The position numbers were made by a program, and so were the translations under genes. 64,000 nucleotides of DNA from the NCBI GenBank assembly GCA_018335335.1, contig JAGXKG010000002.1, forward strand, positions 87,239 to 151,238. The letters run 5' to 3'. Every line of letters begins with the position of its first letter. The first letter of the stretch is position 1. Below the pieces are notes generated by a model that saw only the letters and a program-made list of their open reading frames with translations, had not been told where the DNA came from and did no database searches. Below, one piece after another: positions 178-63,951 of the stretch. Source of the DNA: Candidatus Thorarchaeota archaeon. Lineage in GTDB: Archaea; Asgardarchaeota; Thorarchaeia; Thorarchaeales; Thorarchaeaceae.

Positions 178-890
178 GTCTTCAACTTGATTGTGGCGCG
201 TTCTTTGTCAACCCATTCTGCTCTTCCAGTTTGAACAACTATCTCTAGAATCTCCCTGATGACTTCCTGCGGCAAACCACCAAAATCGAATTCTTCTTGT
301 ATCACCAAACTCCTGAGGTCGAGATACCTCGTTCCTCCCTCCAGAGCCCAGTGATAGAGGTCATCTGCCACTTCAGTTTTCGATTTCCATATCAGTCGGA
401 GTTTCTTTCTTTGCTCATCTATCCACTCGGCTAATCCCTGTTGCACCATTGTTTCAGCTATCTCAGCGAATGCCTCTCTTTTGTTACGCATTTCACAAAA
501 CGGCGGTTCTCTCATGAATGTCGAGAACGAGAAGACATGCTGTTTGTTATGATACGCCCATTCTATCAAAAAATCATGCCATTCTCCGGCCCATTTTCTA
601 ATTCTCTCTTCGGTTGCAGGCACAAAATACATCCAAGGAGCGTGATCAGAGCTTCCCCATTCAGGCATGAATGTATTCGGGATTCGAATCTGTTGGATAT
701 CCTGAGTTTTCTGTTCTTCGCGAAATCTCAGTCTTTCAGCTTCTCTTTGTTGTTTCTTGGTTTTCTTGTCTAAAACCGGTGATGTTTCAGTATTCTCTTG
801 CTTCTTTTCTTTAACAGTTGTCTTTTCAGCCTCTTCTTCTTCTTCTCTTACTTTCTCTCTGACAGTCACCGGCTGTAATCCTCCGCCCAT
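174..890 (-). CDS. vps25: ESCRT-II subunit Vps25-like, tandem winged helix, with an N-terminal Lys/Glu-rich extension
   Basis: GLAEWIDEQRKKLRLIWKSKTEVADDLYHWALEGG and the C-terminal QTGRAEWVDKE match the conserved Vps25 WH1/WH2 signatures (compare yeast GRAEWIDKSKSRCLIYWRTPEEWADLIYQWVEDTG). The N-terminal aromatic/Pro patch TFMPEW...PWMYFVP resembles the Vps25 PPxY region. The gene overlaps the vps4 3' end by 25 nt. Confidence 0.65.
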   Translation of the reverse strand: MGGGLQPVTVREKVREEEEEAEKTTVKEKKQENTETSPVLDKKTKKQQREAERLRFREEQKTQDIQQIRIPNTFMPEWGSSDHAPWMYFVPATEERIRKWAGEWHDFLIEWAYHNKQHVFSFSTFMREPPFCEMRNKREAFAEIAETMVQQGLAEWIDEQRKKLRLIWKSKTEVADDLYHWALEGGTRYLDLRSLVIQEEFDFGGLPQEVIREILEIVVQTGRAEWVDKERATIKLKT

Positions 891-2089: not shown

Positions 2090-2200
2090 ACGAACTCAAT
2101 AGGAGATTGCCTTGAACCTATTAAGAAGGTGTGTGTTTTCTTGCTGTCACCGCTGTTTGAGGTGTTACATGGTTCTAAAAATGATTAATCGAACCCTTCT

Positions 2201-2836
2201 GTGATAGACATGGTAAGAGTTCTCGATTCACTTAGGAAAGCATTATCCTGGGGCCGACATAAGCCGAACATTGCAGAAGTCAAAAGTGACCTTCGGGTGA
2301 TGGCAAAGCAGCTTGAGCGTCAGAGAAACAAACTCGAGCTGGAGGAACGAGAAACCAGAGCCAGAGCTATTAAAGCTCGGAAAGAAGGGAGAACCCCAGC
2401 TTATAAGACATACACTAAAGAAATGGTACGGTTTCGAAGGTATATTCTCTCTATTGAGAAATCCCGAATGCAAATGCTTCGCCTCCTTGCACACGTTACA
2501 AGAGCACAGACGAATGCAAAGGCCAATCATGCATTGGCTGACGTTTCGAAAGTGCTTAGCGTATTGGGAGATGCATTTGATATATCCAGCGTCATAGACC
2601 ATGCCGATGAAATCTCGAGGAGAATAGAGGAATACGAGATTGAAGCCCAAATTTCTGAAGATGCTCTTGGCGTGTCAGTAGGAGGGTCTGAAGGTTCAGA
2701 TGAATTAGCAGCGGCATTCAATGAAATAGACCATGCGGCTGGTATTGAAGGATCAAACACTGATTCGAGAGAGGCAACTGAGATCGATAGGTTGGAGAAA
2801 GATATTAGCTCACTTGAAAATGAGCTCGGTGTATGA
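2201..2836 (+). CDS. ESCRT-III (Snf7/CHMP family) protein
   Basis: 211 aa with a basic N-terminal helical hairpin, an acidic C-terminal half, and a C-terminal MIM-like EIDRLEKDISSLENEL. It is divergently transcribed from vps4. Confidence 0.8.
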   Translation: MIDMVRVLDSLRKALSWGRHKPNIAEVKSDLRVMAKQLERQRNKLELEERETRARAIKARKEGRTPAYKTYTKEMVRFRRYILSIEKSRMQMLRLLAHVTRAQTNAKANHALADVSKVLSVLGDAFDISSVIDHADEISRRIEEYEIEAQISEDALGVSVGGSEGSDELAAAFNEIDHAAGIEGSNTDSREATEIDRLEKDISSLENELGV

Positions 2837-2837
2837 T

Positions 2838-4433
2838 TCACCAACTGAAGAGGTCTCTATTTGAGTCTCTCCAATTGAATCGATGTCTATTCTCATAGGC
2901 TTGGCGCATGAGGCTCCGATATCTTCGTATAAAGTCCTCTGGAACTATCTGCCCATTTCGTAGCATTCTGATTGTTTCACGTATTTCTTCATTGAAATTC
3001 TGATGATTGTCTTCATATCTGTCACTTTCACGATTCCTTCGAGGTTCGTGATACCTATCTCGTATACTTCCAAAGGAATCGTCAGTTTGTCTTGAAGCAC
3101 CTCTAGTAATCGGGCTGGGGTTTCTGCGTTTCTGATAGTCATCACGGCTTGTATGAATGTCGGGTGAAATCTGCGTCCTTCTTGCGGGACTGTTTTCACC
3201 CTCTGTCTTCCGGTGTGTGTCTCTCCTCCCAGAAAGGAGTTGGTATACAAGCCTTTCAATCTGGAGTCTCACTTCACCGGAATTCGTTTTCTGTTGCTCT
3301 AACTTCCGTACGCGTTCCAAGTCCGTTTGTACATATTTATCGAATTGTTTCGCTATCTGAACATAGTCCGGAAGGACTTTCTCAGTTTGCTCTGAACAAT
3401 CGAGCTTTAGATCGCCCTGTTTGAGCTTCATTACCATTCGTTTCCTTATCCGTCCCTCTTCAGAGAAACCTGTATGATAGACAAGAGGAAAATCGAAAAT
3501 GACTTCCATACTCTTACGAATATGGCCAGTCTCGGCAATGAACACAAGACGCCTATTGGTGATGTATAGGGTACCACATGCTTTGTCATTTTTGAGAAAA
3601 TCACTTCCAGCTAACTTGATTTCAGGAAGCGCACACACCGGTAATTCTTTGACTGAGAGCTCTGCATTCTCGTAGAAACTGTTGAATCTTTTTCTGTAAT
3701 AGTTAAGCCCGTCTATTTGTTTCTTTACGTCATCCAATATACTCTTCACTTGGCCCAAAGCTTCGTCTACGCGATTCTTATAGCGCGATCCCAGTTCTTT
3801 GATTCTGTTACTCACTCCATCTATGAATGAGAACTGGGAGGGATTCCATTTTTCTGATGCCATCAAACCTTTGGTCTCTGCTGCTATCTGCTTTGCAACC
3901 ATTTCAGCATTGTTTCCAATCCTCCTCTTTATTGCAGGCATTTCTTCGTGAATCTGTTCGATTTTGCTTTCAAGCCACTTGTAATGAAGAAAGTTGGCCA
4001 TCCGGAGAGAGACAAGCTCTCTCTTGGTTTTGTCCAGTTCATTTCCAAATTCACGGAGTTTGGTGTGACCATATTGTAGGTTCATAACGGATTTTCGTAT
4101 TTCTCTGGAAAGTTCTCCTCGCCTTTTCTCAATAAGAATAAGTCGGGTGGAATGACAGTTGGGGCATCGCTCAATTTTTCTTAATCCCTTGTTCAGATTG
4201 TCAGAGCCACATTCTGGACACTGGCTAGGCTTTTCTTCAAAATCATTGTTATCGATAGTCTGATGGCAATTGCTACATACCATGTATTCTGCGCTATCAA
4301 TTTCAATACAATCAGCACAGATAGCTTCTGCACAATCCTTGCACATATGAGTGGCTTCTGCAGTACTACAATTCTCGCAACTATCTGACTCTGTCTGTCG
4401 ATTCAACGTTTGGCCTCCATGGTCATGTAGCAT
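2838..4433 (-). CDS. Multi-zinc-ribbon, coiled-coil, PH/GRAM-like domain protein with a disordered Arg/Asp/Ser-rich C-terminal tail
   Basis: N-terminus carries four or more CxxC pairs (CENC...CKDC, CADC, CSNC, CPEC...CPNC). A long coiled coil follows. The motif GTLYITNRRLVFIAETG is typical of PH-like GRAM/GLUE/bPH_2 domains. The C-terminal approximately 120 aa are low complexity. Confidence 0.55.
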   Translation of the reverse strand: MLHDHGGQTLNRQTESDSCENCSTAEATHMCKDCAEAICADCIEIDSAEYMVCSNCHQTIDNNDFEEKPSQCPECGSDNLNKGLRKIERCPNCHSTRLILIEKRRGELSREIRKSVMNLQYGHTKLREFGNELDKTKRELVSLRMANFLHYKWLESKIEQIHEEMPAIKRRIGNNAEMVAKQIAAETKGLMASEKWNPSQFSFIDGVSNRIKELGSRYKNRVDEALGQVKSILDDVKKQIDGLNYYRKRFNSFYENAELSVKELPVCALPEIKLAGSDFLKNDKACGTLYITNRRLVFIAETGHIRKSMEVIFDFPLVYHTGFSEEGRIRKRMVMKLKQGDLKLDCSEQTEKVLPDYVQIAKQFDKYVQTDLERVRKLEQQKTNSGEVRLQIERLVYQLLSGRRDTHRKTEGENSPARRTQISPDIHTSRDDYQKRRNPSPITRGASRQTDDSFGSIRDRYHEPRRNRESDRYEDNHQNFNEEIRETIRMLRNGQIVPEDFIRRYRSLMRQAYENRHRFNWRDSNRDLFSW

Positions 4434-7279: not shown

Positions 7280-9187
7280 CTACATCTTATCGACTACTGG
7301 TATCCCCAGCAGCCTTAGTGCATTAGCCATTGTATTCTTGAAGGCAGAAACGAGTGCAAGCCGTGCATTCTTGGTTTTTGTGGGTGCTTGAAGCACAGGA
7401 CATGTATCGTAGAACTTGCTGAATCTATTGGCTAGATCAAAGGCGTAAGTCGCGATTATATTGGTTTGAAATGTAGTACCCCACACTTCCTTTTTCATTC
7501 CTTCTACAACTCTTAGCACTATATCTGGCAGCTTCGCTATTTTCTTGATTAAGGCTAGCTCATTAGGGGATGTAATCTTGCTGTAATCCACATCATCCGT
7601 AAGGTCTTGCTTTGCTTTCTCAAGGATTCTCTTAGCTCGTGCGTGTGAATACTGCAGATATGGTGCCGCATCTCCATTGAAATCCAAAGCATCCTCATAT
7701 CGGAAGGTTATCCTCCTGTCTGGTGAGGCCTTCAGCAAAAGATACCTTACAGCGCCGGTTCCCACCTGTGCAGCAGCTTTTCGCTTGAATTCCTCGGCTT
7801 CCTCAGGGTTTCGTTTCTCAACCTCTTCTAGCGCAAGGTTTGTTGCCTTGTCTAGGATATCATCACAGGTGTAACCAATCCATGTTCCTTTGCGTCCTGA
7901 GAAGTCAGCATCTTCTAATCCGACAAACTCGTACGCAACGTGATGCGAGTTACTAGCTTCTTTGTCATAGCCTAGAAGATGTAAAATGGTGTATATCAGT
8001 CGCTGAGGATGTGATTGTGCTGAACCGATGACATTGAAGACCAAATCCACATCCCTGATGTTCTTGTCTTCGCCCTCAAAAGATGTCCTGTAAACAGCTT
8101 CTCCGTTCGGTTGCTCTTCCAAGACTACATATTTGAATGGATCATTTACAATACCGAACTTCCACATTTGGAATGCAACGTCAGCACCCGTATATGTCCT
8201 TGTACCATCAGAACGGAAAAGAACCTTGTATGGATCTTTCATTTCTTGGAACTCTTCAATCGTGTCGAGTTTAGCGACAATACATCCTGCTTTATCGCCC
8301 TCTTCAAGCTTCATTATACTATCGCTTTTGAGCATCATTTCTTTTGCAACGTCAAGCAATCCGCTATGGGCAATGGTGCTTTCAAGTATCTTGTAATCCT
8401 TGTAAATGCCCAATCTATATGCTGTTTCATTCTGAGCTTTAACGCAGCGGAGAACCATCTCCAAACTATCCTTAGATGCTTTGGAATCTCTGTCTTCTAG
8501 CTGTTTTGAGATGACGCGTATCTCTTCCTCCACATCTGCACTTTCTTCAAATTCTTCTTGGACTTCTACATAGAGTTCACCTAGGAAATGATCGTACTTC
8601 TCCTTCGTCTCTTTTTCATCCCTCTCCTGTAATTTCCAAGTCAATTGTGCTATCTGCAGCCCTAGATCGTTAATATAGTCAAGTTGGACAACATCATAAC
8701 CTACTGCTTCTAACACCCTTCCTAGCGTATCGCCCAGAACTGCATTGCGTGCGTGCCCAATATGCCATGGTTTTGATGGATTCACAGCTGGCGATTCAAT
8801 CATGACACGCTTCCCTTCGTATTTATCAGACATACCATACTGAATGTCAGCATTCTGAACCGAATCTAGTGTCAATCTCGCGAATTCCCCGTTATCAAAG
8901 AAGAAATTAGTGTAGGGTCCTGCTGTTTCTATTCGCTCAATCACTGGGTGTTTGGCAATTTCTTCTTTCAGCTTCTTACCAAGCTTCGTGGCAAATTCTG
9001 CTGGGCTCCTTTTTTCCTTCTTGGCAAGAGTAAAAGCGACCGTTGAAGCCAAATCACCCATTTTCGGATTGGGAGGTACTTCTATGGACCCTCTGATTTC
9101 CTCTGCCTCCAAATCGGTAACGTTGACGATTATTTCAACGACTTCATCGAATGCGGATTTCCACGGGTTTACGCTCATCTCGGTCAC
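7280..9187 (-). CDS. argS: Arginine--tRNA ligase (class I)
   Basis: HIGHARNAVLGD HIGH motif, ArgRS N-terminal add-1 domain, DALR-like C-terminal anticodon-binding region. Confidence 0.9.
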   Translation of the reverse strand: MTEMSVNPWKSAFDEVVEIIVNVTDLEAEEIRGSIEVPPNPKMGDLASTVAFTLAKKEKRSPAEFATKLGKKLKEEIAKHPVIERIETAGPYTNFFFDNGEFARLTLDSVQNADIQYGMSDKYEGKRVMIESPAVNPSKPWHIGHARNAVLGDTLGRVLEAVGYDVVQLDYINDLGLQIAQLTWKLQERDEKETKEKYDHFLGELYVEVQEEFEESADVEEEIRVISKQLEDRDSKASKDSLEMVLRCVKAQNETAYRLGIYKDYKILESTIAHSGLLDVAKEMMLKSDSIMKLEEGDKAGCIVAKLDTIEEFQEMKDPYKVLFRSDGTRTYTGADVAFQMWKFGIVNDPFKYVVLEEQPNGEAVYRTSFEGEDKNIRDVDLVFNVIGSAQSHPQRLIYTILHLLGYDKEASNSHHVAYEFVGLEDADFSGRKGTWIGYTCDDILDKATNLALEEVEKRNPEEAEEFKRKAAAQVGTGAVRYLLLKASPDRRITFRYEDALDFNGDAAPYLQYSHARAKRILEKAKQDLTDDVDYSKITSPNELALIKKIAKLPDIVLRVVEGMKKEVWGTTFQTNIIATYAFDLANRFSKFYDTCPVLQAPTKTKNARLALVSAFKNTMANALRLLGIPVVDKM

Positions 9188-22675: not shown

Positions 22676-23356
22676 ATGACGAGAATAGAGTTTCTAGGAA
22701 CGCGGGCGAATACTGATGTAAAAACTCCAAGACATTCGAAGCATTCTGGTGTACTAGTTGATAGTCGTATCCTTCTGGATGTTGGAGAATCCGAGTTCTT
22801 GGAAAATAATCCTGAAGCCATATTCATAACTCATCTTCATCCTGACCATGCATTCTTTGTTAACAACTCCGTGAATTCAATTGATGTACCTATCTATGCT
22901 CCTGAGGAGTCTGAAGAAATCGATATTGAGGTCATTTCTGAGGAAACGACTGTTGGACCTTTTACTGTCACCTCCATACCAACGATACACAGCAAGATTG
23001 TTGAGTCTACAGCATATCTGCTAGAAGACAAGAATCGTCTTCTGTATACCGGTGATATGGTTTGGATTGAGAAGAAGCATCACCACAGATTCGGCGATTT
23101 GGATCTTGTAATTACCGATGGAAGCTTCATTCGAGAAGGGGGAAGAGTATTCGGTGATAATCAAGGCAATGTGTGGGGGCATAAGGGCGTTCCTGATTTG
23201 ATAGATTTCTTCAAAGAATATACTGAGCGGATTATATTCACTCATCTTGGCAAATGGTTGCTTCAGGATGTTGAGACAGGAAAGAACAAGATGGAGCAAT
23301 TCTCTCAAGTAAATGTTGAATTAGCTTATGACGGTATGGTTGTAGAAATAGAATAG
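22676..23356 (+). CDS. Metallo-beta-lactamase-fold hydrolase
   Basis: THLHPDH zinc-binding motif. Confidence 0.65.
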   Translation: MTRIEFLGTRANTDVKTPRHSKHSGVLVDSRILLDVGESEFLENNPEAIFITHLHPDHAFFVNNSVNSIDVPIYAPEESEEIDIEVISEETTVGPFTVTSIPTIHSKIVESTAYLLEDKNRLLYTGDMVWIEKKHHHRFGDLDLVITDGSFIREGGRVFGDNQGNVWGHKGVPDLIDFFKEYTERIIFTHLGKWLLQDVETGKNKMEQFSQVNVELAYDGMVVEIE

Positions 23357-23421: not shown

Positions 23422-23524
23422 GGCCGAGATGGGGTAGACTGCCTGATTCTATTAGGCAGGCCCTATGGCAACCTTGGGGATTGTGGCTCCCTAGCCGCGG
23501 GTTCAATTCCCGCTCTCGGCCCCA
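23422..23524 (+). tRNA. tRNA-His (GUG) with encoded G-1 and CCA, carrying an approximately 25-nt insertion (putative non-canonical intron) in the D-loop
   Basis: Acceptor GCCGAGA/TCTCGGC preceded by G-1 that pairs with C73. Anticodon arm GGGGA-TTGTGGC-TCCCT with U33, GUG and G37. T-arm GCGGG-TTCAATT-CCCGC. D-stem GGGT/ACCT encloses a 35-nt loop that contains the hairpin CTGCCT...AGGCAG. Confidence 0.7.
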
Positions 23525-32143: not shown

Positions 32144-32286
32144 TACTCATTCTTCAATGTAGCGATAGTGTATAACCTGCAAGCTTTCGCCAAAGAATCG
32201 GTGTTTCTACTCGCCGCTAAAAAATCTAAAAGACTTAAATTCAGATGGATGACGAAGAAACCTTCAGTTCTCTTTTGGATTCATGA

Positions 32287-32610
32287 TCTAGTGGTTCACT
32301 GAGTATTGACGTGACCGACTTGGAAAACGGTACATACTACTTCCGTGTTCGTGCAGTCGACAGCTTCGGCGTCTCTGGAGCATGGAGCAACGTGGAAAAC
32401 ATCACGGTGTCAATCCCGAGCACCACAACAACAACGACTACCACCGAAACAACTACAGAGACTACTACAACTACAACGACCACCGCACCAACAACTGGTA
32501 CTGGGCCTTTTGGACTCCCTGAGACAATCTTTGGCATCGATACATGGCTCGTTTTGGCCGCTGCAGGCATCGTCGTGGTCCTGTTACTCGTAGTACTAGT
32601 CGAACGATGA
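32287..32610 (+). pseudogene. 5'-truncated remnant of a surface protein: last FnIII strands, poly-Thr linker, PGF-CTERM-like archaeosortase anchor
   Basis: The open frame starts right after a stop with no credible start. GTYYFRVRAVDSFGVSGAWS is an FnIII F-G strand pattern. It is followed by a TTTTTTTETTTETTTTTTTT linker, then GPFGLPE plus a TM helix plus basic ER. Confidence 0.45.
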
Positions 32611-32775
32611 TAGCTTAGAACGTGAGGCGCCGTCCACCCAGCGCTTCCCCCCTTCTTCTTTTTCACTCTTAGACATCAACAACTGCAGTGCTATCTCAAC
32701 AGTACCTTCGATTATCGAAAAACGTAAAAAGAAGAGCGTCTCTCCAAGGCTAGACAACCATTCTTGGTGCAACAT

Positions 32776-32893
32776 GCGGAGGTTGCCAAGCCCGGTTAAC
32801 GGCGCTAGACTCAGACTCTAGACCGCTGGAACATTTTTCCAGTGGGGAAAATCTCGTAGGAGTTCGCGAGTTCAAATCTCGCCCTCCGCACCA
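32776..32893 (+). tRNA. tRNA-Leu (CAG) with encoded CCA and a 30-nt insertion (putative non-canonical intron) between the anticodon stem and the variable arm
   Basis: Acceptor GCGGAGG/CCTCCGC, discriminator A, CCA. Anticodon arm CTAGA-CTCAGAC-TCTAG. Class II variable arm TCTCGTAGGAGTTC. T-arm GCGAG-TTCAAAT-CTCGC. The extra segment 32822-32851 forms the hairpin CTGGAA...TTCCAG. Length without it is 88 nt, typical for tRNA-Leu plus CCA. Confidence 0.75.
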
Positions 32894-32895
32894 TT

Positions 32896-33324
32896 TTATT
32901 CAAGAATAAGCAGGCTTTCGTAACTTTTGATTCCATCCATCTTCTGAAGGCTATTTTCTAGGAAATCAGTGAGTGATTTCATGTTTCTGGCCCGCACTAA
33001 ACAAAGCACATTCACAGAACCACTAGTTCGATATGTATCATGTACATTCTCGTGTCCCTCAAGTTCTGATAGAACTGAGTCTACTTTCTTTGGTGTCGCC
33101 CGAACAAGTATCATCATCTGGATATCAAAGCCCATCTTGCGATGGTCAACCGAAACGGTGTATTTCTTGATGATGCCTTCTTGTTCTAGCTTCAGCATCC
33201 TATTGCGGATCGAACTGGCACTAAGATTGACACCCTCCTTATCTGCCATATCTCTTAAAGAGCTACGCGCGTTGTTCTTGAGAATCTCAATGATTCTTTC
33301 ATCTGTAGAGTCCAAATCGTGCAT
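32896..33324 (-). CDS. Lrp/AsnC-family transcriptional regulator
   Basis: N-terminal HTH (DERIIEILKNNARSSLRDMADKEGVNLSASSIRNRMLKL) and a C-terminal RAM domain. Start taken at MHDLDS. Confidence 0.8.
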   Translation of the reverse strand: MHDLDSTDERIIEILKNNARSSLRDMADKEGVNLSASSIRNRMLKLEQEGIIKKYTVSVDHRKMGFDIQMMILVRATPKKVDSVLSELEGHENVHDTYRTSGSVNVLCLVRARNMKSLTDFLENSLQKMDGIKSYESLLILE

Positions 33325-33606: not shown

Positions 33607-34008
33607 TTAACTCTTGACGCGCATGATAACTTTTGTACCCATGACATCCCAGTATTCGACCGTGCAGTTGCTCTCGATTTGAGAGGCCACCTCTTCATCA
33701 TCTGGCCGGGACACCTCATAGGTTTCATAGCTCTCCGTGTCCATGATGTTCAACCTTTCGCCTTGATCGGCGATTACTGTTGCTGTTCTTTTATCGATGA
33801 TTGGCACTTCTGCCATCCGGTCTGCCGGCATAACCACATTTCGCTTCCTATTATCGAAGAAACCCACGGCCATTATATTCGCCTTTGCGGAACCATGTTT
33901 TCCTGGCTTTGACTTATCAATAGAGACAATTCTGCATGGCTCTTCGTCTATCAGCATGTATGACCCTTCTTTCAATGACTTGACTTCAGTACGTTTTATT
34001 GACAACAT
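33607..34008 (-). CDS. Translation initiation factor 5A (aIF5A)
   Basis: Hypusination loop SKPGKHGSAKA, with an N-terminal SH3-like domain and a C-terminal OB fold. Confidence 0.85.
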   Translation of the reverse strand: MLSIKRTEVKSLKEGSYMLIDEEPCRIVSIDKSKPGKHGSAKANIMAVGFFDNRKRNVVMPADRMAEVPIIDKRTATVIADQGERLNIMDTESYETYEVSRPDDEEVASQIESNCTVEYWDVMGTKVIMRVKS

Positions 34009-37008: not shown

Positions 37009-38874
37009 CTACGCGATTCTGCCATATTTCTTCACGGGTGTCCTATGTCCTATCCTGTCCCCCGGAAGACTATCTAACAACCGTCGTATTCGCTCAGATT
37101 TATCCATCAAATCATCCTCATTCTCTTGAAATGCCATGAGCGCAGTTGTGAAGTTCTTCTCTTTCAGTGCCTTCAGCACAGGAATCAGAGCAGTAATCTC
37201 ATCTTTGTTTTCAGCTCGTGCAATTTCCTCCAGTGCTTGTACTGTCTTTTCGATATCCTCTTCCCTTTCGGAAAAATGAAGGAAAAGCCCCTCGAAGACA
37301 CTAAAGAGATCCTCGAATGCGTCAGCCTTCTCACCGATGCGGTTGAAAGTTGAAGAAGATTCCTGTAATAATTGAATCCCTTGTTCAATTGTTTCCGAAT
37401 TTCCGGAACGAAGTGCTTCTCTACCCGCAGTCCTGTTCCAAATGGCGCTGAGCTCAGAAACGCCCAGTTCTTCATACATATTTGCTGCTTCTTTTGCTTT
37501 TTCACTGGCCTTCACATGGAATGAAGAGGCATCTTTTTCAGATTCAAGTCTATTTGAGCACTCAGCAGCCTTACTGAAATACTCCGAAGCTTCACCCGGT
37601 TGGCCCGTTTCAGATGCTGTCTCAGCAAGCTCGACATAGATTCCAAGTGCTTGAGCTAGCGTTTCCTTAGCTTTCTCTTCTTGGTTGGCTTCTCGCATTA
37701 CCTTGGCAGCTTCCTCGAATGATGTGGCTTGTCTTTCCTTCCGACCTCTTTCCTTCTCTATCTGAGCCCTTTTGAGATAGAAATCAATGACTTTCGCGTA
37801 GATTTCATTGGCCTTCTCTTCCTTCCCCCATTCCCTTAAGCACATAGCTCTATAGCGACGATATTTGTTCTCAGTTTCGTCGTCCTCTTCGAGCGCTGCG
37901 GCATCAGCAAGCTCGCCGAATAGGTTACCTGCACGCTTGTATGCCCACCTTGCTTTCATAATTCGTCCAGCTTTCCGAAAGAGCTCACCTGCTCTAACCA
38001 AAAGAGGTGCTACAACGTTAGGGGCACCAGTCATTTTTGTATATGCTTCTGCAGCTTTTGTTGCTGCCTTATTCTGACCACTTGAAAGCCGCTCAAAACC
38101 GTATGCCTCTTGGGCTGCATCATAGATATTGCCTGCCTTTTCGAATAGCTCTGCTTTTTCGTATTTCTTTCCTGCTTTCATCATCAGCGGAATAGCCTCA
38201 GCAGTCTCATCTTCGCTTTGCATGATTTGAGCTGCTTCTGCGAGAGCGTTTCCTGCTGCAAGATAATCTCCCTTAGATTCTGAGATATCTGCCCATTGGG
38301 AAGCTAACCGAATTGCCCTCTCATGGATTCTGTTCCCCAGATCTTCATCATCTACAGTGTAATAGAGACGGCCCACTTTCTTGAGAAGTTCGACTGCTTT
38401 GTCTAATTCCTTGTTATCCTCATGAATATCTGCAAGATTCTCTAGAGCGTCCGCTGCTCTTATGGTGAGTCTATCCTTCACCTCATCGTCAGCTGCGAAA
38501 TCTTTGCTTCGAAAGTAGAAATCAGCCGCTTTCTTATATTCCTCTAGTTGTTCAGCAATCATTCCTCCGTTCTCGTTCAGTGCTACGATTGATTCGTGTA
38601 TTTCGGGATCTGAGTCCTGACGAATGAATGCTAACGTAGCCTTCTCTACGAGATTAAAGCAGGCCTCCTTTTTTCCCTCCTCGCTATAGATGTTGCTAGC
38701 TTCGATATAGAGATTTTTTGCCCATTGTGGTTTTTGGCTTGATACCAGCTGGTTGGCTGCCTCTTCAAGCAATTCCGCGGCATGTATTGACTTTCCATTT
38801 CGAATTGCTTCTCTTGCTGCTTTTACTGTTTCTTCAGCTGACTTCATGGGTCCTCTCTCGTGAGGTGGATGCAA
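37009..38874 (-). CDS. TPR-repeat protein
   Basis: Repeated 34-residue A/Y/L-rich helical motifs throughout its 621 aa. Confidence 0.75.
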   Translation of the reverse strand: MHPPHERGPMKSAEETVKAAREAIRNGKSIHAAELLEEAANQLVSSQKPQWAKNLYIEASNIYSEEGKKEACFNLVEKATLAFIRQDSDPEIHESIVALNENGGMIAEQLEEYKKAADFYFRSKDFAADDEVKDRLTIRAADALENLADIHEDNKELDKAVELLKKVGRLYYTVDDEDLGNRIHERAIRLASQWADISESKGDYLAAGNALAEAAQIMQSEDETAEAIPLMMKAGKKYEKAELFEKAGNIYDAAQEAYGFERLSSGQNKAATKAAEAYTKMTGAPNVVAPLLVRAGELFRKAGRIMKARWAYKRAGNLFGELADAAALEEDDETENKYRRYRAMCLREWGKEEKANEIYAKVIDFYLKRAQIEKERGRKERQATSFEEAAKVMREANQEEKAKETLAQALGIYVELAETASETGQPGEASEYFSKAAECSNRLESEKDASSFHVKASEKAKEAANMYEELGVSELSAIWNRTAGREALRSGNSETIEQGIQLLQESSSTFNRIGEKADAFEDLFSVFEGLFLHFSEREEDIEKTVQALEEIARAENKDEITALIPVLKALKEKNFTTALMAFQENEDDLMDKSERIRRLLDSLPGDRIGHRTPVKKYGRIA

Positions 38875-47206: not shown

Positions 47207-48088
47207 TTGGATTTGGATCACGTCTTTGGAAAGCTGCGGTTCGATGAATCGGTCAGTGCATATTCTCTTTTTACCAATGATGGTGAGCCATTCCTATCCT
47301 TCTCGATGCCCGAGACCATAGTACTGCAGCTCAAGGGAACTATGAAGGCCCATTCATCATCATTAACGCTCGTGAATGTTCTTACAAGTGCTGGTACGGT
47401 TGTCCTTTCGAGGGTTGACCCACATTGGGTACTGGCTGTTCTCTTTGAACCTAAGACTCCCCTTGGCGCATCGCTTCAAAGCACAAGGGATGTAGTTGAG
47501 GACCTACAGAAAACCGACCTTCCGGAACCTCCCAAATCCTCTGTAGATTCTACTCATGAAACGTCCAAGGCTGATGTTGAGGTATCCGAAGCTGAGGAAC
47601 CTCGGGATATTGTGGTTCGCCATGGTTGCATTGTTCGCAAAGATGAACAATATAGCCAAGCTATGATGAGTGATTCTGAACTCCGAATAGCAATGACGGA
47701 CCGTTTCGGCAATTTAGCATTGGACGTTCTCCTCATGGTAGATGAGAAAAGGACCATATTTCAGATAGCTGAATTGCTTGACAAACAAGTTGACAGGATT
47801 ATTCCTTTAGTTGAATGGCTTGTGTCAAAACGAGTAGTCAGGGTACAGTGCCCATCAGAACAGGAGACGGGAACTCGTGAAATCGTAGAATGTCCTGTTT
47901 TCAGTGGCGATTCCGGAAAAACGAATCGGGAACATCGAGAGGTTCTTGAGCTTTGTGATGGTACTCGTACAGTTCAAGAAATCGCTGAAGAATTGAACCT
48001 GCAGTACTTTCAGGCCTTGCAGGCTATCGTTCCTTATCGTGGCAAGAGCGTGAAGTTCGTCCGCACGAATAGAATACAACAGAGATGA
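47207..48088 (+). CDS. Roadblock/LC7-domain protein with a C-terminal tandem wHTH-like region (module 1)
   Basis: N-terminal approximately 105 aa follow the Roadblock pattern. An acidic/Pro linker is followed by a C-terminal region containing LELCDGTRTVQEIAEE. Paralog of 51775-52776. Confidence 0.6.
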   Translation: MDLDHVFGKLRFDESVSAYSLFTNDGEPFLSFSMPETIVLQLKGTMKAHSSSLTLVNVLTSAGTVVLSRVDPHWVLAVLFEPKTPLGASLQSTRDVVEDLQKTDLPEPPKSSVDSTHETSKADVEVSEAEEPRDIVVRHGCIVRKDEQYSQAMMSDSELRIAMTDRFGNLALDVLLMVDEKRTIFQIAELLDKQVDRIIPLVEWLVSKRVVRVQCPSEQETGTREIVECPVFSGDSGKTNREHREVLELCDGTRTVQEIAEELNLQYFQALQAIVPYRGKSVKFVRTNRIQQR

Positions 48089-48609
48089 ATGAGGTTGATA
48101 TTATGGGGTTGAAAGGAAGACTGGCTTGGGCCTTGAAAATCGATAAAGTTGCTAAACCACTGTTTCAATCAGTGTATAGGGAATTGCTGAATTATCTGAT
48201 TCAACATGCTGCAAGCGTGGAAGTAATCAATCACCAACTGAAAGAAATTGGTTTCCGAGTTGGCGAACATTTGCTGATGGATTACGCGGAAAAAATACGT
48301 GAACATGCAGGAGAGTTTCATGAATTCGCGTCAACACTTGATTTAGCGTACAAGGTAAATTCAGGCCAGGATTTTTCTGATATTTGGATTAGCGATGATA
48401 AGCAAATAATCAAGTTCACAGACAACAACTGTCCAATCTGTCAAGATGTTGAAATAACCGACATGCCTGGGCTGCAGTATTGTAACCTCGTGAGTGGCGT
48501 GTTTCAGGCAGTACTTGATTTACGGGGTTTCAAGGGGGATTCATACCAAGAGTCTTGTCAGGCTGTAGGTGATGAAACATGCACTTGGACAATCAAAGCT
48601 ATTGAATAG
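48085..48609 (+). CDS. V4R-domain (Bet3/TRAPP-fold) protein (module 1)
   Basis: The C-terminal region NNCPICQDVEITDMPGLQYCNLVSGVFQAVLDL...DETCTWTI shows the 4-vinyl-reductase Cys pattern. Start overlaps the stop of 47207-48088. Confidence 0.7.
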   Translation: MNEVDIMGLKGRLAWALKIDKVAKPLFQSVYRELLNYLIQHAASVEVINHQLKEIGFRVGEHLLMDYAEKIREHAGEFHEFASTLDLAYKVNSGQDFSDIWISDDKQIIKFTDNNCPICQDVEITDMPGLQYCNLVSGVFQAVLDLRGFKGDSYQESCQAVGDETCTWTIKAIE

Positions 48610-50063: not shown

Positions 50064-51123
50064 TCAGGACACGGTCCCTCCTCCGGTCTCGGCTTCTGTC
50101 TCCTGCCCGTGTCCAGGTACATCACACCCGGGGGCAGTGAGGTTTTCCACAGCTTTTGCCACGGCGGAGTTATTATCACTCGGTCCAGTCTCGTCACCGA
50201 AGCTGGACAGGTCCAGTTGAACAAAGCGAACAGCCGCGGACTCTCCCCGGCCTGATGGAGGACCGTTATGGGAGAGTGAGGACTTCTGCTTAGAAGAACA
50301 AGTCTTCCTCACAGCCTTCGGGGCTGAACCGTTCCCCCGTTTGGGGGTGGCCCACCGCCCTAGTCCGGTCTCATCCTTAAGTGAAGGAATGAGCGTGAGT
50401 AAACGACGTGCGATATTCAGGGAGCCGTTGCGGTCAGCATTGGTGCGGAAGCCGCACGTGTGGCACACGAACAACGACTGCTTAGGACGTACTCCCTTGT
50501 TGCCACACTTCCAGCACATAATCGAGGTCCAGTTCTCAGGTACCGCGTGAAAGTGGCTCTCCTTGCCTTCCACTTCCCACCCGAGCTGTTCGAGTCCGTG
50601 TTTGAGGCCCTCGGTGATACGCGAAAAGCTCCACCTGTGCACCATGCCCCTGAACTTGGAACCTTTGTAATTGCCGCGTCTAGCAGCATTCCGGATTCCC
50701 TTGAGCCTGCCAGTCATGACTCTGAGTACGTATGGATTTTCCTCCTCGGATTTCCTTGGGGCCATGAACTCGCTGAAATCATCTGAGTCCTTGTCATCGC
50801 TCATGATGAATTCCTTCCCTTAGAAAAAGTTCGCGATTTTCATGGCTTGAAACTGGATTGACGATAGATGGAGTTATCAAGCCGTTGAGTCCACATTGAG
50901 CCCGGGAACGTTGGCGGTTTGATGCAAGACTCACCTCTCCCTGATACTGTTGGGGCTTTCGGTGTCCATATCGTTTCGTAATCGCTTGAGCAGTTCTCTG
51001 GGTTGGTTGTTTCAGCATAGGTAGCCCGTTCATAGGACATATCCTCCCGTAAGCTACTAGGATATCGTTGACATCAATCTTTCGTTTTTTTGCCCGGGAT
51101 ATAGGAGGGCTTTGAGAGTCCAT
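50064..51123 (-). pseudogene. tnpB: Frameshifted, N-terminally truncated IS200/IS605-family TnpB (OrfB) remnant, on a GC-rich island
   Basis: The C-terminal ORF carries RuvC-II/III and the zinc ribbon (CWKCG...CHTCGF...NADRNGSLNIARR). An upstream ORF in another frame carries the RuvC-I-like KIDVNDILVAYG and a GEVSLASNRQRSRAQ helical segment. GC is about 58-60% against about 45% in flanking DNA. Confidence 0.6.
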
Positions 51124-52805: not shown

Positions 52806-53282
52806 ATGGTTAGCGTCAGAAACCCCTTATTGGTAACTTTGTACTCTCGAATCGTTGACAAGGTTTTGGCCACGACTGAAAGTATTGAAGAAGCCAACGA
52901 CGAACTCCGCGAAGTGGGCCGAAGTATATCAACCAACTTATATCTTAACTCTGAAATCGCCCAGAACACAAAGGAAACTATCCAAACTAGGGAAGACGTA
53001 TCAAAGCTAGTAGAGGTAGTTTTCAGAGAGCTTTACGACAGAAAGCCCGACGATATCGATATGGATACCGCCCGTGGAAGTGTGCGAATCACTGACGAAG
53101 AATGTGTATGGTGTCAAGATGTTCATCTTGAAGGGATGAGGGGATTTGGATACGGCGAGATTTTCAGTGGTATTCTGGAGGCAATTTTGGAGCTCAAGGG
53201 CGTCGATGCTAAAGTCTTCCAAGAAATGTCTCGAGCAACTGGCTCTGACCGCTGCATATGGAATGTGCGGCTCGTCTGGTGA
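52806..53282 (+). CDS. V4R-domain (Bet3/TRAPP-fold) protein (module 2)
   Basis: EECVWCQDVHLEGMRGFGYGEIFSGILEAIL...DRCIWNV Cys pattern. Confidence 0.7.
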   Translation: MVSVRNPLLVTLYSRIVDKVLATTESIEEANDELREVGRSISTNLYLNSEIAQNTKETIQTREDVSKLVEVVFRELYDRKPDDIDMDTARGSVRITDEECVWCQDVHLEGMRGFGYGEIFSGILEAILELKGVDAKVFQEMSRATGSDRCIWNVRLVW

Positions 53283-57466: not shown

Positions 57467-59140
57467 ATGCCCCCGCAAGCCGAAGAAGAATTCTCAATTC
57501 ACTGGATTGATGATGTTGTTTCAGACGTGTTAGAACGCGATACCGACGAATACTTGGTTTCTACAGGCAAGAGTCCAAGCGGTAGTATCCATATTGGATT
57601 CATGCGGGAATTAGTCATCGCTGATGTTATTACAAGAAGACTTCAAGATTTGGACAAGAATGCAAGAATGATGTTTGTTGTTGATGATTATGATCCAATC
57701 CGCTCATTTCCTGATGGAGTGTCTCTCCCGATAGATGAATGGTCTGGCATTCCATATTCTCGCATCCCTGATGAATTTGGATGTTGCAAGAGTTTCGGTG
57801 CTCATTATGCCAATGAATTGATAGAATCTTTCCCTGATTTTGGGGTCGATCCAGATGTTGTTTGGACAAGCAAAATCTACGAAACTGAAGAAATGCTGGA
57901 TGCTGTGAGAATATGCCTTCGTCATACTGAGACAATAAGGGAAATAATGGTTGAATACGTAGCTAGTGACTTTGATGACGAACAACGTGAGGAATACCTG
58001 AAAGGTATGGAATCATGGTTTCCTGCTTCAGTTGTCTGTCCCAAATGTGGGCATCTTCAGTCTGGTACGAAAGGTGCAATCGAACCAAATAGGGTAACAG
58101 ATTATGATGCAGAGAAAGACCTGATAACTTTCGAGTGTCAGGAATGCGGCTATTCGGACACACTGCCACTTGATGAACTCAAGATTAAACTCACTTGGAG
58201 AGTTGATTGGCCCGCGAAGTGGTATATCTATGATGTTACATGCGAGCCGGCTGGAAAGGACCACTCAGTAAAAGGTGGCTCATATGATACAGGTCTAGAA
58301 GTCTCCCGTCGGGTCTTTAATGAACAAGGGCCTGTGAAGGTCGCCTATGAATGGGTTCGGATTGGCGGTCGCGATATGGCCACTTCTGAAGGGATTGTTT
58401 TCACACCTGACGCATGGACCAAAATTGCTCCCCCCGAGGTCTACAGATACCTTATGCTCAAGACCGATTTAAGGCGTGCGATAAACATAGAACCTGAAAG
58501 ACTGCCTGAACTTATCGATGAATATGATAGATTCGAGCGGATTTACTACGGGCTTGAAGAAGGTACTGAAGAAGAAATAGAGGTAGCCCAATTGGTATAT
58601 CCTCTAACTCAGGTTCATCCTGTAAGAGATACCTATTGTCCCAAGCTTCCGTTCAAGTTCGCAAAGGAAGTATCTCAACTTGAAGATTTCCTAGGTCCAG
58701 AGGTTGTTATGAATCGATGCAAGGAAGCTATCAAAAAGCAATATGACCTCAATCAGGTATCTGAAGAAGCTATCTCACATATCCGAGTGAGGTTGCAAAG
58801 AGCAAAGAATTGGGTAAACCAATTTGGTTCAGATAGTGACAAGCTGACAATTAGAGATACTGTGCCAGATGAATTCAGCATGAAGTTATCTCCAGAGGAA
58901 AAGGAGTTTTTGGAAAAAATGCTGGACCTACTTCAGAGTGGACCGCTGGAAGACGAAGAGATTCAAAGTGCAGTTTTTGAGAATGCACGAGATATTGGTA
59001 TCAAGGTAGGAAAAGCATTCGGTGTGTTCTACAAACTTCTGATTTCACGTAGACATGGACCTAGACTGGGCCCATTCATAAATCTCTTGGGTCGAGAGTG
59101 GGTAGTTGAGCGATTGGAGGCTGTCTTACAGAGGAAGTAA
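57467..59140 (+). CDS. lysS: Lysine--tRNA ligase, class I
   Basis: HIGH-type motif GSIHIGFMRE and a Cys cluster (CPKCGH...CQECG) typical of archaeal class I LysRS; approximately 557 aa. Confidence 0.8.
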   Translation: MPPQAEEEFSIHWIDDVVSDVLERDTDEYLVSTGKSPSGSIHIGFMRELVIADVITRRLQDLDKNARMMFVVDDYDPIRSFPDGVSLPIDEWSGIPYSRIPDEFGCCKSFGAHYANELIESFPDFGVDPDVVWTSKIYETEEMLDAVRICLRHTETIREIMVEYVASDFDDEQREEYLKGMESWFPASVVCPKCGHLQSGTKGAIEPNRVTDYDAEKDLITFECQECGYSDTLPLDELKIKLTWRVDWPAKWYIYDVTCEPAGKDHSVKGGSYDTGLEVSRRVFNEQGPVKVAYEWVRIGGRDMATSEGIVFTPDAWTKIAPPEVYRYLMLKTDLRRAINIEPERLPELIDEYDRFERIYYGLEEGTEEEIEVAQLVYPLTQVHPVRDTYCPKLPFKFAKEVSQLEDFLGPEVVMNRCKEAIKKQYDLNQVSEEAISHIRVRLQRAKNWVNQFGSDSDKLTIRDTVPDEFSMKLSPEEKEFLEKMLDLLQSGPLEDEEIQSAVFENARDIGIKVGKAFGVFYKLLISRRHGPRLGPFINLLGREWVVERLEAVLQRK

Positions 59141-61393: not shown

Positions 61394-62476
61394 CTACGCG
61401 TGTAATTCGACTGTTTCCTGAACAACATCTATGATGTCTCTGTTTCGTTTGATTACGTCATGATCTACTGTCCTTTCTATCTGGTCTCTGAAAACCGGCA
61501 TCCTTTCCCCCTTAAGGCCGCGCAAACTTGCCTCGACGCAAAGTCCAAGTACAAGGGGGTTATAACCGCCCTCTAAGACCCAGAGAGAGCCCATTGCACC
61601 TGTTGATTCAGTAAGATAATCTACCTTCTCTCCGAAGCGCCAAAAAGTGCTTGAATCCACATTCATGTTGCCCACAGGATCTGCATAGTGTGGATCGTAA
61701 CCTGCCGAGATTGCGATTAGTGACGGTTCGAATCTCTCAATAGCTGGTATGATGATTCTTTCAATTGCCTCTTCATATGAAGCATCGGGGGATCCATCAA
61801 CGAGCGGGATGTTGACATTTGTTCCGACGGCTTCACCATGTCCTACCTCGTTGTAGTGACCAGTACCGCACATATCATAATCATATTCATGCAAAGAGAT
61901 GTACTGTACCTTGTCTTCGGAATAGAATATCTCAGAGGTTCCATTGCCGTGGTGATTATCGAAATCAAGTATAGAAACCCGTTCTATCTCTGGATTTCGC
62001 AATGCCTGCTTGATTGCAATAGCTGCATTGTTGAAGAAACAGAGCCCCATCGGTGATGACGTTGAAGCATGGTGACCTGGTGGCCTTATGAGCCCAAATG
62101 CATGAGTTGTTCTCTCCTCAGTTACCATTTTCATTGCTCCAATAGCCCCTCCTACTGCACCAAGAGCACTTTTTAGTAGCCCTGGACTGGCGTATGCTGA
62201 TTCTCCCAGTACACCGCTGCCGAGATCACTCATGATTGCAACGCTGTCCAGCACATAAGGTGTATGAACATCAAGCACATCCTTCGGTGACGCCCGAGGC
62301 ACTTCGATAATTTCTGAACCATTTACGAATTTGCTGTTGAGCAAATGGTTCTCGATAACATCTATCCTAAGTGGTGTTTCGAACGCCTCCAAGTGTGGCT
62401 TTGGGAATGGGGCTTGATGAAGGTCGATGTCTCTATTTGTTACAATCCTCACATTTTCTTTGGCCAATGCTATCAC
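61394..62476 (-). CDS. Histone deacetylase/acetoin-utilization (HDAC) family protein
   Basis: ILDFDNHHGNGT and the conserved HHA..G...GFC catalytic region. Confidence 0.8.
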   Translation of the reverse strand: MIALAKENVRIVTNRDIDLHQAPFPKPHLEAFETPLRIDVIENHLLNSKFVNGSEIIEVPRASPKDVLDVHTPYVLDSVAIMSDLGSGVLGESAYASPGLLKSALGAVGGAIGAMKMVTEERTTHAFGLIRPPGHHASTSSPMGLCFFNNAAIAIKQALRNPEIERVSILDFDNHHGNGTSEIFYSEDKVQYISLHEYDYDMCGTGHYNEVGHGEAVGTNVNIPLVDGSPDASYEEAIERIIIPAIERFEPSLIAISAGYDPHYADPVGNMNVDSSTFWRFGEKVDYLTESTGAMGSLWVLEGGYNPLVLGLCVEASLRGLKGERMPVFRDQIERTVDHDVIKRNRDIIDVVQETVELHA

Positions 62477-63951
62477 CGCTTTTCAACTGGGAAGTCCTCT
62501 ACTTGCATGACATAACGATAGAGCGTATTCAAAACTCTATCTGACACAGTGGATTTCTGCACCCGTTCGAGCCCATCTATGCTCTCCTCTTTTATCAAGT
62601 GCTCTAAGAACGCATCTGCAGACTTGAATTCTCTCTTTTCTTTGGACCACAGATACCCCTGCTGTTCAAAGACATTGGAATTCGCTTTGGAAAACTCCCT
62701 ACAAGCTTCTTCCATATCTACTGGTGGCCCTTTTCGGTCATATTCGGATGAAATACTGTCTCTTTCAACCAAGAAACCAATGGCGTAACGATTCTTCTCG
62801 AAATACAACTCTCCTATTGTCTTTCCGAACCGTTTTTCACCTGTTCTTTCGTTTTCCATCCGGATGACGATTTTGCTCGTAACCTTGTACAACTTATCTC
62901 TTAGAATTGTGTAGTGTACCGTCTGTTTGGACTGAAACTCGACAGCAAGAGAGTGTGGCTTGAGCCAATCTGGCAATGGTTCTATAGGGATTTTTTCTTC
63001 AAGTAGAAATTGTATCAACCTGTTCTCTTCGATTTCTTCTGCAGCCTTGGTCAACTCTTTACAGCGCAGCTTCAGCCACTTGTAGCCTCTGGAATCAAAA
63101 CTTGATGCTACATTTCTGTTGAAATCGGTTGGGTCAATGATGAAAATGTAGTCATCATGGAATTCCTGTTTTCCCCTCAGTTCATGGAGGGATCTATTTG
63201 CCGGGTCGACGGGATTCTTCTCCAGAATTCTTATTCGTTCTACTGCTCCTTCGAAATCACCAAACTCCGTGACCAGGAGCTCAAGGGCATAACCTGTGAA
63301 CCCCATTCTTCCAACTGCACATTTGTCTCCGTAGACATGTGCAGCCCTAACAAATGACTTGAGTATCCGAATATCTGAACGCATGTCTCCCTTCAAATGC
63401 TGGAGGATATAGTCGGTATGATGAAGTGTTCTGTCTACTGCTGTTATTGGCCCTTCTGAGGCAATCTCCTCTTTTGATAATCTGAAACAAGAAACAACAT
63501 CAATCTCTTGTCCCTGCAACTGGAGCGAAAGATAAGGATGATCTGAGTAAGTCTTTTGAATTTTAGTTGGTTCAAGTTTCTCTAATGCTGGATAAAACCA
63601 GTTGTCAACAAATCCATCTAATAATTGGGAAATTTGTCTGTCTCGTTTATCTTGGGGCATAGAGATAATCCGGCGGTAATCGTCCGGATTCAGAATCACG
63701 AATAAATCAATATCTGAAGAGCCTCTAAGTTGTGTCTGTTTCTTCCCCGTGGAGCCATGGGCTTCTATTGATTCATAGTCTATTCCTAGTCTCTTGCTAT
63801 ACCTTCTCAGTTGTGTAGATAGTTTCGCTATCATCTCTTCCTGATTACGTATTTCTTCGTCTGTGGGTGTTATTTCCTTCAGAACTTTTTCTCTAACAGA
63901 TTCGTTCAGTAGATTACCCACTATTGCGACCCGAGAAAACAAGATAGCCAA
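62473..63951 (-). CDS. cca: Archaeal class I CCA-adding tRNA nucleotidyltransferase
   Basis: GSTGKKQTQLRGSSDIDLFVIL (GS...SDID) nucleotidyltransferase motif; archaeal Cca-like length and tail. Confidence 0.7.
   Translation of the reverse strand: MAILFSRVAIVGNLLNESVREKVLKEITPTDEEIRNQEEMIAKLSTQLRRYSKRLGIDYESIEAHGSTGKKQTQLRGSSDIDLFVILNPDDYRRIISMPQDKRDRQISQLLDGFVDNWFYPALEKLEPTKIQKTYSDHPYLSLQLQGQEIDVVSCFRLSKEEIASEGPITAVDRTLHHTDYILQHLKGDMRSDIRILKSFVRAAHVYGDKCAVGRMGFTGYALELLVTEFGDFEGAVERIRILEKNPVDPANRSLHELRGKQEFHDDYIFIIDPTDFNRNVASSFDSRGYKWLKLRCKELTKAAEEIEENRLIQFLLEEKIPIEPLPDWLKPHSLAVEFQSKQTVHYTILRDKLYKVTSKIVIRMENERTGEKRFGKTIGELYFEKNRYAIGFLVERDSISSEYDRKGPPVDMEEACREFSKANSNVFEQQGYLWSKEKREFKSADAFLEHLIKEESIDGLERVQKSTVSDRVLNTLYRYVMQVEDFPVEKR

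Follow-up and report, generated by a model that had tools for sequence, protein, structure and literature searches.

A tRNA-Leu(CAG) gene of an Asgard archaeon with a probable 30-nt protein-spliced intron at the non-canonical position 43/44

The segment from 32776 to 32893 of the DNA under study (a stretch of 64,000 nucleotides, called the window below) is a real tRNA-Leu(CAG) gene of an Asgard archaeon. It is very probably functional, and the 30 nt that interrupt it at tRNA position 43/44 are very probably an intron spliced by proteins (endonuclease/ligase type). We hold this reading with high confidence, and the comparative and structural support for it is strong; cleavage, ligation and the enzyme are the parts of it that we infer.

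Identification of the tRNA-Leu(CAG) Gene

Positions 32776-32890 of the plus strand match the Rfam tRNA model RF00005 with 48.6 bits, against a gathering score of 29, and an encoded CCA extends the gene to position 32893. The match (E = 2.5e-7 in a permissive scan of the whole window) covers the model full-length, from 1 to 71, and leaves a 42-nt block in the variable region unaligned. Uninterrupted orthologs score 49.7-55 bits with the same model. As read, the gene has the form GCGGAGG-UU-GCCA...GGC-G-CUAGA-CUCAGAC-UCUAG + 44 nt + GCGAG-UUCAAAU-CUCGC-CCUCCGC-A-CCA, where the anticodon CAG (32812-32814) lies in the anticodon loop CUCAGAC (U33, C34-A35-G36, A37).

When positions 32822-32851 are deleted, 88 nt are left that ARAGORN calls as a class II tRNA-Leu(cag) with an encoded CCA, so that removal of the insert restores a canonical tRNA. 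The predicted fold has an acceptor stem of 7 bp, an anticodon stem of 5 bp, a 3-bp variable arm and A73. The spliced variable arm UCUCGUAGGAGUUC is arranged as U-CUC-GUAG-GAG-UUC with the stem CUC/GAG; a long variable arm with its own stem and the discriminator A73 are the marks of a class II tRNA-Leu. The 5′ exon (32776-32821, plus strand, from the Rfam alignment) comprises the acceptor 5′ strand, the D arm and the complete anticodon arm. The 3′ exon (32852-32893, plus strand, from the ARAGORN cloverleaf of the spliced sequence) consists of the variable arm (32852-32865), the T arm (32866-32882), the acceptor 3′ strand (32883-32889), the discriminator A (32890) and the encoded CCA (32891-32893). 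An earlier note on this DNA had proposed both a tRNA-Leu(CAG) gene at 32776-32893 and an 88-nt class II product with a typical variable arm and CCA; the Rfam score and the ARAGORN call on the spliced form bear out both proposals.

Default ARAGORN returned 0 tRNAs for the whole window, and the Rfam gathering-mode scan with fast filters likewise returned 0, the Leu gene being missed both times. These misses are due to the filters and to searches unaware of introns; a local Rfam search overturned them.

The Insert and Its Boundaries in Related Genomes

The insert, ACCGCUGGAACAUUUUUCCAGUGGGGAAAA (32822-32851, plus strand), occurs once in the window. Its edges were confirmed independently of folding by comparison with related loci, which were obtained by exact-protein look-up and aligned (alignment A1). 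These relatives share with the window the syntenic order aIF5A - AsnC-type regulator - tRNA-Leu. The neighbouring aIF5A of the window (33607-34008, minus strand) matches a protein from a “Ca. Lokiarchaeota archaeon” MAG at 96% identity, one from “Promethearchaeia” at 85% and many from Thorarchaeota at ca. 70%.

In one syntenic locus of a sister lineage, L003 (GCA_053582745.1, aIF5A 85%), the tRNA-Leu(CAG) gene is 88 nt long and lacks exactly the 30 bases of 32822-32851. The left and right edges of this gap coincide with the predicted 5′ cut (32821/32822) and the predicted 3′ cut (32851/32852). There is no sliding ambiguity at the boundaries, since the first intron base is A where the 3′ exon begins with U, and G43 stands against the last intron A. 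The span 32822-32851 given in the earlier note thus matches the gap to the base; the position number 44/45 given there has to be changed, because the insert follows G43, the final base of the anticodon stem, and therefore lies at 43/44.

Two groups of relatives carry an insert at the same site as the window. It is 32 nt long in L007/L008/L009 (aIF5A 99%) and 35 nt long in L002 (GCA_014730275.1, aIF5A 96%), so that three distinct Leu intron sequences (30, 32 and 35 nt) were found. The insert bases are absent from L003/L014 and from L011-L013. When one genome per species was scanned for the anticodon arm, four copies besides L003 were retrieved, all of them uninterrupted: two Thorarchaeota MAGs, one Heimdallarchaeota MAG and one uncultured archaeon are their sources. 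The intron-bearing lineage seems to be absent from this species-representative set, which gave intron-less copies only. Metagenome scans returned 0 matches for any 20-50 nt insert between the exon ends and 0 matches for a pattern of intron tail plus exon.

Comparison of exons with introns shows where the gene has changed. Among the intron-bearing copies there are 0 differences in 88 exon positions (the 5′ exon, 32776-32821, is 100% identical in L007/8/9 and L002), while the aligned introns differ at 5 of 33 positions between the window and L007 and at 16 of 35 between the window and L002 (Fisher p = 1e-3 and 9e-11, respectively). Intron-less L003 agrees with the window throughout the anticodon arm and the 3′ exon; its exons differ from those of the window by 6 substitutions, all of them in the D arm. 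The D-stem pair G10-C25 (32785, 32803) is A10-U25 in L003, a compensatory change.

The intron-less genes bear on the possibility that the extra bases are a canonical 37/38 intron seen through another fold of the precursor. ARAGORN, when run with introns enabled, does return solutions of this kind. For the window it proposes a 21-nt intron with the anticodon CAG, an A.C mismatch in the anticodon stem and a poorly paired 23-nt variable region; for L007 and L002 it proposes introns of 37 and 40 nt and reads the anticodon as CAA, which leaves a U.C mismatch and a non-class II variable region of 9 nt. The solutions therefore disagree between orthologs in both extent and anticodon, and each has a mismatched anticodon stem. 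The intron-less orthologs, in turn, run through CUAGA-CUCAGAC-UCUAG and on into UCUCGUAGGAGUUC uninterrupted. We rejected these folds because the orthologs do not agree on them and the intron-less genes contradict them, and regard a 37/38 intron as scarcely credible. The earlier note had named such a fold as something that would overturn its reading, and only these inconsistent solutions came up. The intron is thus taken to lie at 43/44, outside the canonical 37/38 location, and belongs to the non-canonical subclass.

The Intron Hairpin

Within the insert, RNAfold predicts a 9-bp hairpin (helix h′, 32823-32845, plus strand, -14.1 kcal/mol) formed by CCGCUGGAA/UUCCAGUGG, with strands at 32823-32831 and 32837-32845 and the loop CAUUU at 32832-32836. 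Among 100,000 shuffles of the intron, only 15 gave a helix of 9 bp in this register. The earlier note had seen this hairpin as CTGGAA-CATTT-TTCCAG; the hairpin stands, while its extent was stated too short.

All three inserts share this architecture. In each, the hairpin runs from intron nucleotide 2 to 6 nt before the intron 3′ end, with 9 bp, 10 bp or 5+5 bp and -13 to -15 kcal/mol. The first intron base is a purine in every case, and the tail GGGGAAAA is invariant in the three variants.

Two other types of element were considered for the insert. A group I or group II intron has a ribozyme core of hundreds of nucleotides, and a self-splicing intron was ruled out given an insert of only 30 nt and the Rfam result for 32500-33200, where at E <= 10 nothing but the tRNA was retrieved and no group I or group II intron matched. 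An intron-encoded box C/D guide, as known from Haloferax tRNA-Trp, was ruled out since neither box C (RUGAUGA) nor box D (CUGA) can be read in ACCGCUGGAACAUUUUUCCAGUGGGGAAAA.

Flanking Sequences and the Functional State of the Gene

Upstream of the gene, at 32714-32736 on the plus strand (-62 to -40 of tRNA-Leu), lies the A-rich element ATCGAAAAACGTAAAAAGAAGAG. In alignment A2, this element is nearly invariant in five orthologous loci, both intron-bearing and intron-less, whereas the flanks diverge. From this conservation we take it to be probably a BRE/TATA-type promoter element; if so, the transcript would have a leader of some 20-30 nt. Directly after the CCA, a run of T (32894-32897, plus strand) can be read, and in every ortholog of alignment A1 the CCA is followed by T-rich sequence. 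The T-run probably serves as a transcription stop.

Further upstream, 32239-32610 (plus strand) holds the C-terminal ca. 113 aa left of a gene for a 943-aa secreted/surface protein, with a Thr-rich linker and a hydrophobic anchor; the remnant is 83% identical to L007 6398-9229. The 943-aa gene is intact beside tRNA-Leu in L007/8/9 and L002. Since the window has a remnant where the relatives have the intact gene, ca. 2.7 kb directly upstream of tRNA-Leu must have been deleted in the window genome.

One can ask whether the tRNA gene itself is a pseudogene, inactivated by the small insertion and no longer used. Standard tRNA finders do fail on it, and with ca. 2.7 kb lost from the adjacent gene the neighbourhood is not pristine. 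Decay would not, however, leave exons 100% identical over three lineages while the introns have diverged by 15-46%, nor a conserved promoter-like element upstream and a T-run downstream, nor a cloverleaf that is perfect once the insert is removed, nor an insert whose structure is kept through compensatory change. Because exon identity, the promoter-like element, the cloverleaf and the insert structure are all preserved, we consider a pseudogene highly unlikely. The frozen exons, the kept hairpin, the invariant tail, the conserved upstream element and the T-run together indicate that the Leu gene is in use, with an insert that appears to be constrained only in its structure and at its ends.

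Splice Motif Geometry

In the archaeal splice motif, a helix of 4 bp separates two 3-nt bulges in which the splice sites lie, and relaxed forms of this motif (HBh′ or hBH) are found at non-canonical positions (PMC4090602, PMC5829648), where many archaeal tRNA introns have them (PMC4090602). The Leu junctions were examined with the following geometry: the cut falls after the second bulge base, and the central helix H joins exon positions -6 to -3 with intron positions -6 to -3. We derived this register ourselves from the A-I pair rule for eukaryotes, and it is in line with the review, which places the first two anticodon bases in H. The geometry was evaluated at the boundaries fixed by comparison and set against 100,000 shuffles of the intron. 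An unrestricted enumeration of bulge-helix-bulge (BHB) motifs with capped h′ length had let chance motifs outrank the true one, and was replaced by these shuffles at fixed boundaries.

With this geometry, the 5′ strand of the predicted central helix is CUCU (32816-32819, plus strand; tRNA 38-41) and the 3′ strand is GGAA (32846-32849, plus strand), which is part of GGGGAAAA. The geometry script scores 3 of 4 pairs between them (U-G, C-G and U-A, plus a C.A mismatch), one being G.U. The predicted 5′ splice site falls in the bulge AG|A (32820-32822, plus strand), directly 5′ of the intron hairpin, and the predicted 3′ site falls in AA|U (32850-32852, plus strand). Since no exon-exon helix closes the 3′ splice-site region (h = 0 bp), the motif is classed as HBh′. 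At the fixed positions, H of at least 3 pairs combined with h′ of at least 9 bp arose in 6 of 100,000 Leu intron shuffles.

The Leu intron thus lacks the strict hBHBh′ motif, having 3 of 4 pairs in H and 0 bp in h; what it has is a relaxed HBh′ motif, with h′ of 9 bp, the bulge AG|A, H formed by CUCU x GGAA, the AA|U region, and cuts at the edges that the ortholog defines. The earlier note had called for BHB folding around both junctions, and the outcome is this relaxed motif rather than a strict BHB. The modelled junctions fit a relaxed bulge-helix-bulge of the HBh′ type, weak by strict standards.

In this model, tRNA positions 39-41 would serve as a strand of the central helix in the splicing conformer and as anticodon stem in the mature tRNA. 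Formation of H requires the 5-bp anticodon stem to open, so that the two compete. In computed energy, the two conformers lie close together. With the rest of the molecule optimised, the HBh′ and cloverleaf conformers come to -47.4 and -46.4 kcal/mol, respectively; for a hand-built pair with the rest fixed, the values are -40.5 and -45.1 kcal/mol. The three intron variants give no covariation signal for H, because neither H nor the splice-site bulges vary among them.

A Second Interrupted tRNA Gene in the Window

A partial Rfam match to a T arm at 23496-23513 led to a second interrupted gene, a tRNA-His(GUG) with encoded G-1 and CCA at 23422-23524 on the plus strand. ARAGORN missed this gene as it stands, and Rfam matched its T arm only; the assignment comes from ARAGORN on the spliced form (a 74-nt tRNA-His), from the splice geometry and from an ortholog, L016. 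A 28-nt intron (23438-23465, plus strand) is predicted in the D-loop, after G15, at position 15/16. For its boundaries, an ARAGORN deletion scan proved too permissive, and the BHB geometry was used instead. The intron is laid out as AG|A - CUGCCUGAU-UCU-AUUAGGCAG - GCCC - UA|U, with a 9-bp hairpin and a central helix in which GCCC pairs with the D-stem strand GGGU at 4 of 4 positions, again an HBh′ motif. This combination (H 4/4, h′ 9 bp) was equalled by 1 of 100,000 shuffles. The L016 ortholog (3748-3851; neighbouring protein 80% identical) keeps the intron, and all 6 of its substitutions lie within it.

A crude search of the window for acceptor stems plus T arms found no other credible tRNA. 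Each of the two tRNA genes of the window (2/2) is therefore interrupted by a non-canonical HBh′ intron, and the two introns are built alike, from AG|A, a hairpin of 9 bp, a pairing tail of 4 nt and NA|U. No resemblance in sequence was seen between the introns of the Leu and His genes, and the Leu intron is not repeated elsewhere in the window. The earlier note had mentioned another tRNA intron at an unusual position in this DNA; it corresponds to the D-loop intron of tRNA-His(GUG), upheld by the geometry, the ARAGORN call on the spliced form and L016.

The gene for an MBL-fold hydrolase (22676-23356, plus strand) ends 66 nt upstream of tRNA-His, and this pairing is syntenic in L016. Some sources annotate the hydrolase as ribonuclease BN, a tRNA-processing enzyme.

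With the His gene in hand, one can weigh the possibility that the 30 nt of the Leu gene are simply retained, giving a mature tRNA with a 44-nt variable region and two hairpins. The insert adjoins the class II variable arm, where extra length is most tolerable, and a cloverleaf with the extra hairpin is stable at -45.1 kcal/mol. Against this, the tail GGGGAAAA does not vary, and in every variant the hairpin is set 1 nt behind the 5′ junction and 6 nt ahead of the 3′ junction, which suits splicing and not tRNA structure; sequence drift is free in the hairpin, whereas the exons do not change; and close relatives work with a 14-nt variable arm. The same architecture, moreover, occurs in the D-loop of tRNA-His, where a retained insert would destroy the G18-G19 elbow contacts. 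Retention is, in our estimation, quite improbable. The earlier note had preferred a non-canonical intron, and this preference is strengthened by an intron-less ortholog that has the predicted spliced sequence, by the HBh′ geometry and by the structure kept in two relatives.

Proposed Splicing Pathway

For a Leu intron removed by proteins, we propose the following course of events. The gene would be transcribed with the intron included. In one conformer of the precursor, the intron would form its 9-bp hairpin (h′), and the GGAA of the intron tail would pair with exon C38-U41 into the short helix H, temporarily displacing part of the anticodon stem. This would place the 5′ splice site in the 3-nt bulge AG|A and the 3′ site, AA|U, unpaired between H and the variable-arm hairpin. 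A broad-specificity (alpha-beta)2 EndA would then cut at 32821/32822 and 32851/32852, and a ligase of the RtcB type would join the exons into the 88-nt class II tRNA-Leu, including the encoded CCA. The predicted junction reads ...CUCUAG|UCUCGUAG..., i.e., ...GACUCUAG|UCUCGUAGGAG....

Cleavage of relaxed motifs needs an (alpha-beta)2 or epsilon2 endonuclease with a specific loop (PMC5829648, PMC4033280), and (alpha-beta)2 EndA with an L1 specificity loop has been reported for Asgard archaea (PMC5829648). No EndA was found among the window ORFs of at least 150 aa, for which Pfam scans covered 1-12.7 kb and 37-64 kb and the gene calls of the fetched loci covered the stretch in between. The endonuclease step thus rests on the literature for the phylum, because the window has no EndA gene, and a broad-specificity endonuclease is the enzyme that we would presume for this genome.

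Host and Gene Content of the Window

Several genes of the window (174-2836, 37009-38874, 48085-48609 and 52806-53282) belong to membrane trafficking: an ESCRT-II subunit, a Vps4-type AAA ATPase and Snf7/ESCRT-III. The same set includes a SNAP-like TPR protein and two TRAPP-domain proteins, and is eukaryote-like. The trafficking genes are consistent with an Asgard origin. An MBL-fold hydrolase of the window has a 100% identical counterpart that is listed at NCBI under “Ca. Thorarchaeota archaeon”. By these genes and by the aIF5A matches, the host is an Asgard archaeon.

Other genes of the window touch on tRNA. A CCA-adding enzyme with a tRNA_NucTransf2 domain is encoded at 62473-63951 (minus strand), although the 3′ CCA is already part of both tRNA genes. 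A putative SAM-dependent RNA methyltransferase (PF04013; 60341-60931, minus strand) lies near the genes of lysyl-tRNA synthetase (57467-59140) and of the CCA enzyme, and an arginyl-tRNA synthetase gene is found at 7280-9187. A 246-aa ORF at 50064-50804 (minus strand) has only the Cas12f1-like/TnpB TNB domain and looks like a truncated nuclease of a TnpB-type transposon.

Discussion

The Leu intron resembles the relaxed-BHB introns described in other archaea (Marck & Grosjean 2003; Sugahara et al. 2008; reviewed in PMC4090602 and PMC4033280). Like them, it is short (30 nt) and lies outside 37/38, has its predicted splice sites in or beside a 3-nt bulge with a 4-nt central helix and h′, restores the cloverleaf upon removal, and belongs to a host lineage in which an (alpha-beta)2 endonuclease has been reported. 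It differs from them in that only 3 of the 4 pairs of its central helix form, that this helix is in competition with the anticodon stem, and that an outer helix h is absent. It also differs in position: it follows the last pair of the anticodon stem, at 43/44. The non-canonical positions listed for archaea include 20/21, 22/23, 25/26, 29/30, 30/31, 45/46, 53/54, 56/57, 59/60 and 3/4, of which 45/46 is in the variable region (PMC4090602); 43/44 is absent from these examples, which form an open-ended list and are no proof of novelty.

Interrupted tRNA genes are common in at least part of the Asgard superphylum. In three complete genomes, two of Atabeyarchaeia and one of Freyarchaeia, 92-95% of tRNA genes bear introns, often non-canonical and multiple; standard tools miss introns in these genomes, and R2DT was needed on top of tRNAscan-SE (PMC11291895). 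The window is similar in that both of its tRNA genes are interrupted non-canonically and that standard tools miss the introns. It belongs, however, to a different Asgard lineage (its proteins match ones that the sources name Thorarchaeota, Lokiarchaeota or Promethearchaeia), its tRNA genes have one intron each, and for the Leu gene a presence/absence polymorphism is documented among close relatives. The tRNA-His intron can be compared with an experimentally studied HBh′ intron of the D-loop, efficient cleavage of which requires an (alpha-beta)2 EndA that has the specific loop; that intron lies in another tRNA, position and organism. Earlier work has described both non-canonical tRNA introns and a permissive (alpha-beta)2 endonuclease in Asgard archaea (PMC5829648, PMC11291895). 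The genome-wide tendency and the permissive enzyme that the earlier note suggested are therefore not new for this group, and the present case adds an example and leaves the current picture unchanged.

The distribution of the insert suggests that the Leu intron was gained recently in the small clade of the window, because one gain is more parsimonious than several losses. Large-scale transposition and gain of tRNA introns have been described in Thermoproteales (Fujishima et al. 2010, as summarised in PMC4090602). Compared with that summary, the Leu intron is similar in that its presence or absence differs among close relatives, which would imply a recent gain; it differs in that the Leu and His introns of the window are dissimilar and no other copy of the Leu intron is found there, so that the window gives no sign of transposition.

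It is possible, though we would stop short of calling it probable, that the Leu intron represents a recent lineage-specific gain at a position, 43/44, that is off the usual published lists. Together with the empty-site sister lineage and the His intron of the same build, it may then provide a natural before-and-after pair and reveal a preferred “cassette” form of intron, with a tail that mimics the exon strand it displaces.

For annotation, the consequence is that genomes of this lineage would appear to be without tRNA-Leu(CAG) and tRNA-His under default ARAGORN and fast-filtered Rfam unless the search is intron-aware. For biology, the Leu gene offers a well-documented relaxed-motif intron in Asgard archaea, with an intron-less sister allele, three diverged alleles and frozen exons. 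Asgard archaea are the closest archaeal relatives of eukaryotes, and their tRNA-splicing system is homologous to the eukaryotic one. Should the reading as a recent gain be true, the interrupted and empty sites would form a before-and-after pair for the study of how introns of the endonuclease type are inserted in Asgard genomes. The case is thus of value for annotating such genes correctly, and because an empty site and three diverged alleles make up a natural series in which intron gain can be studied in Asgard archaea.
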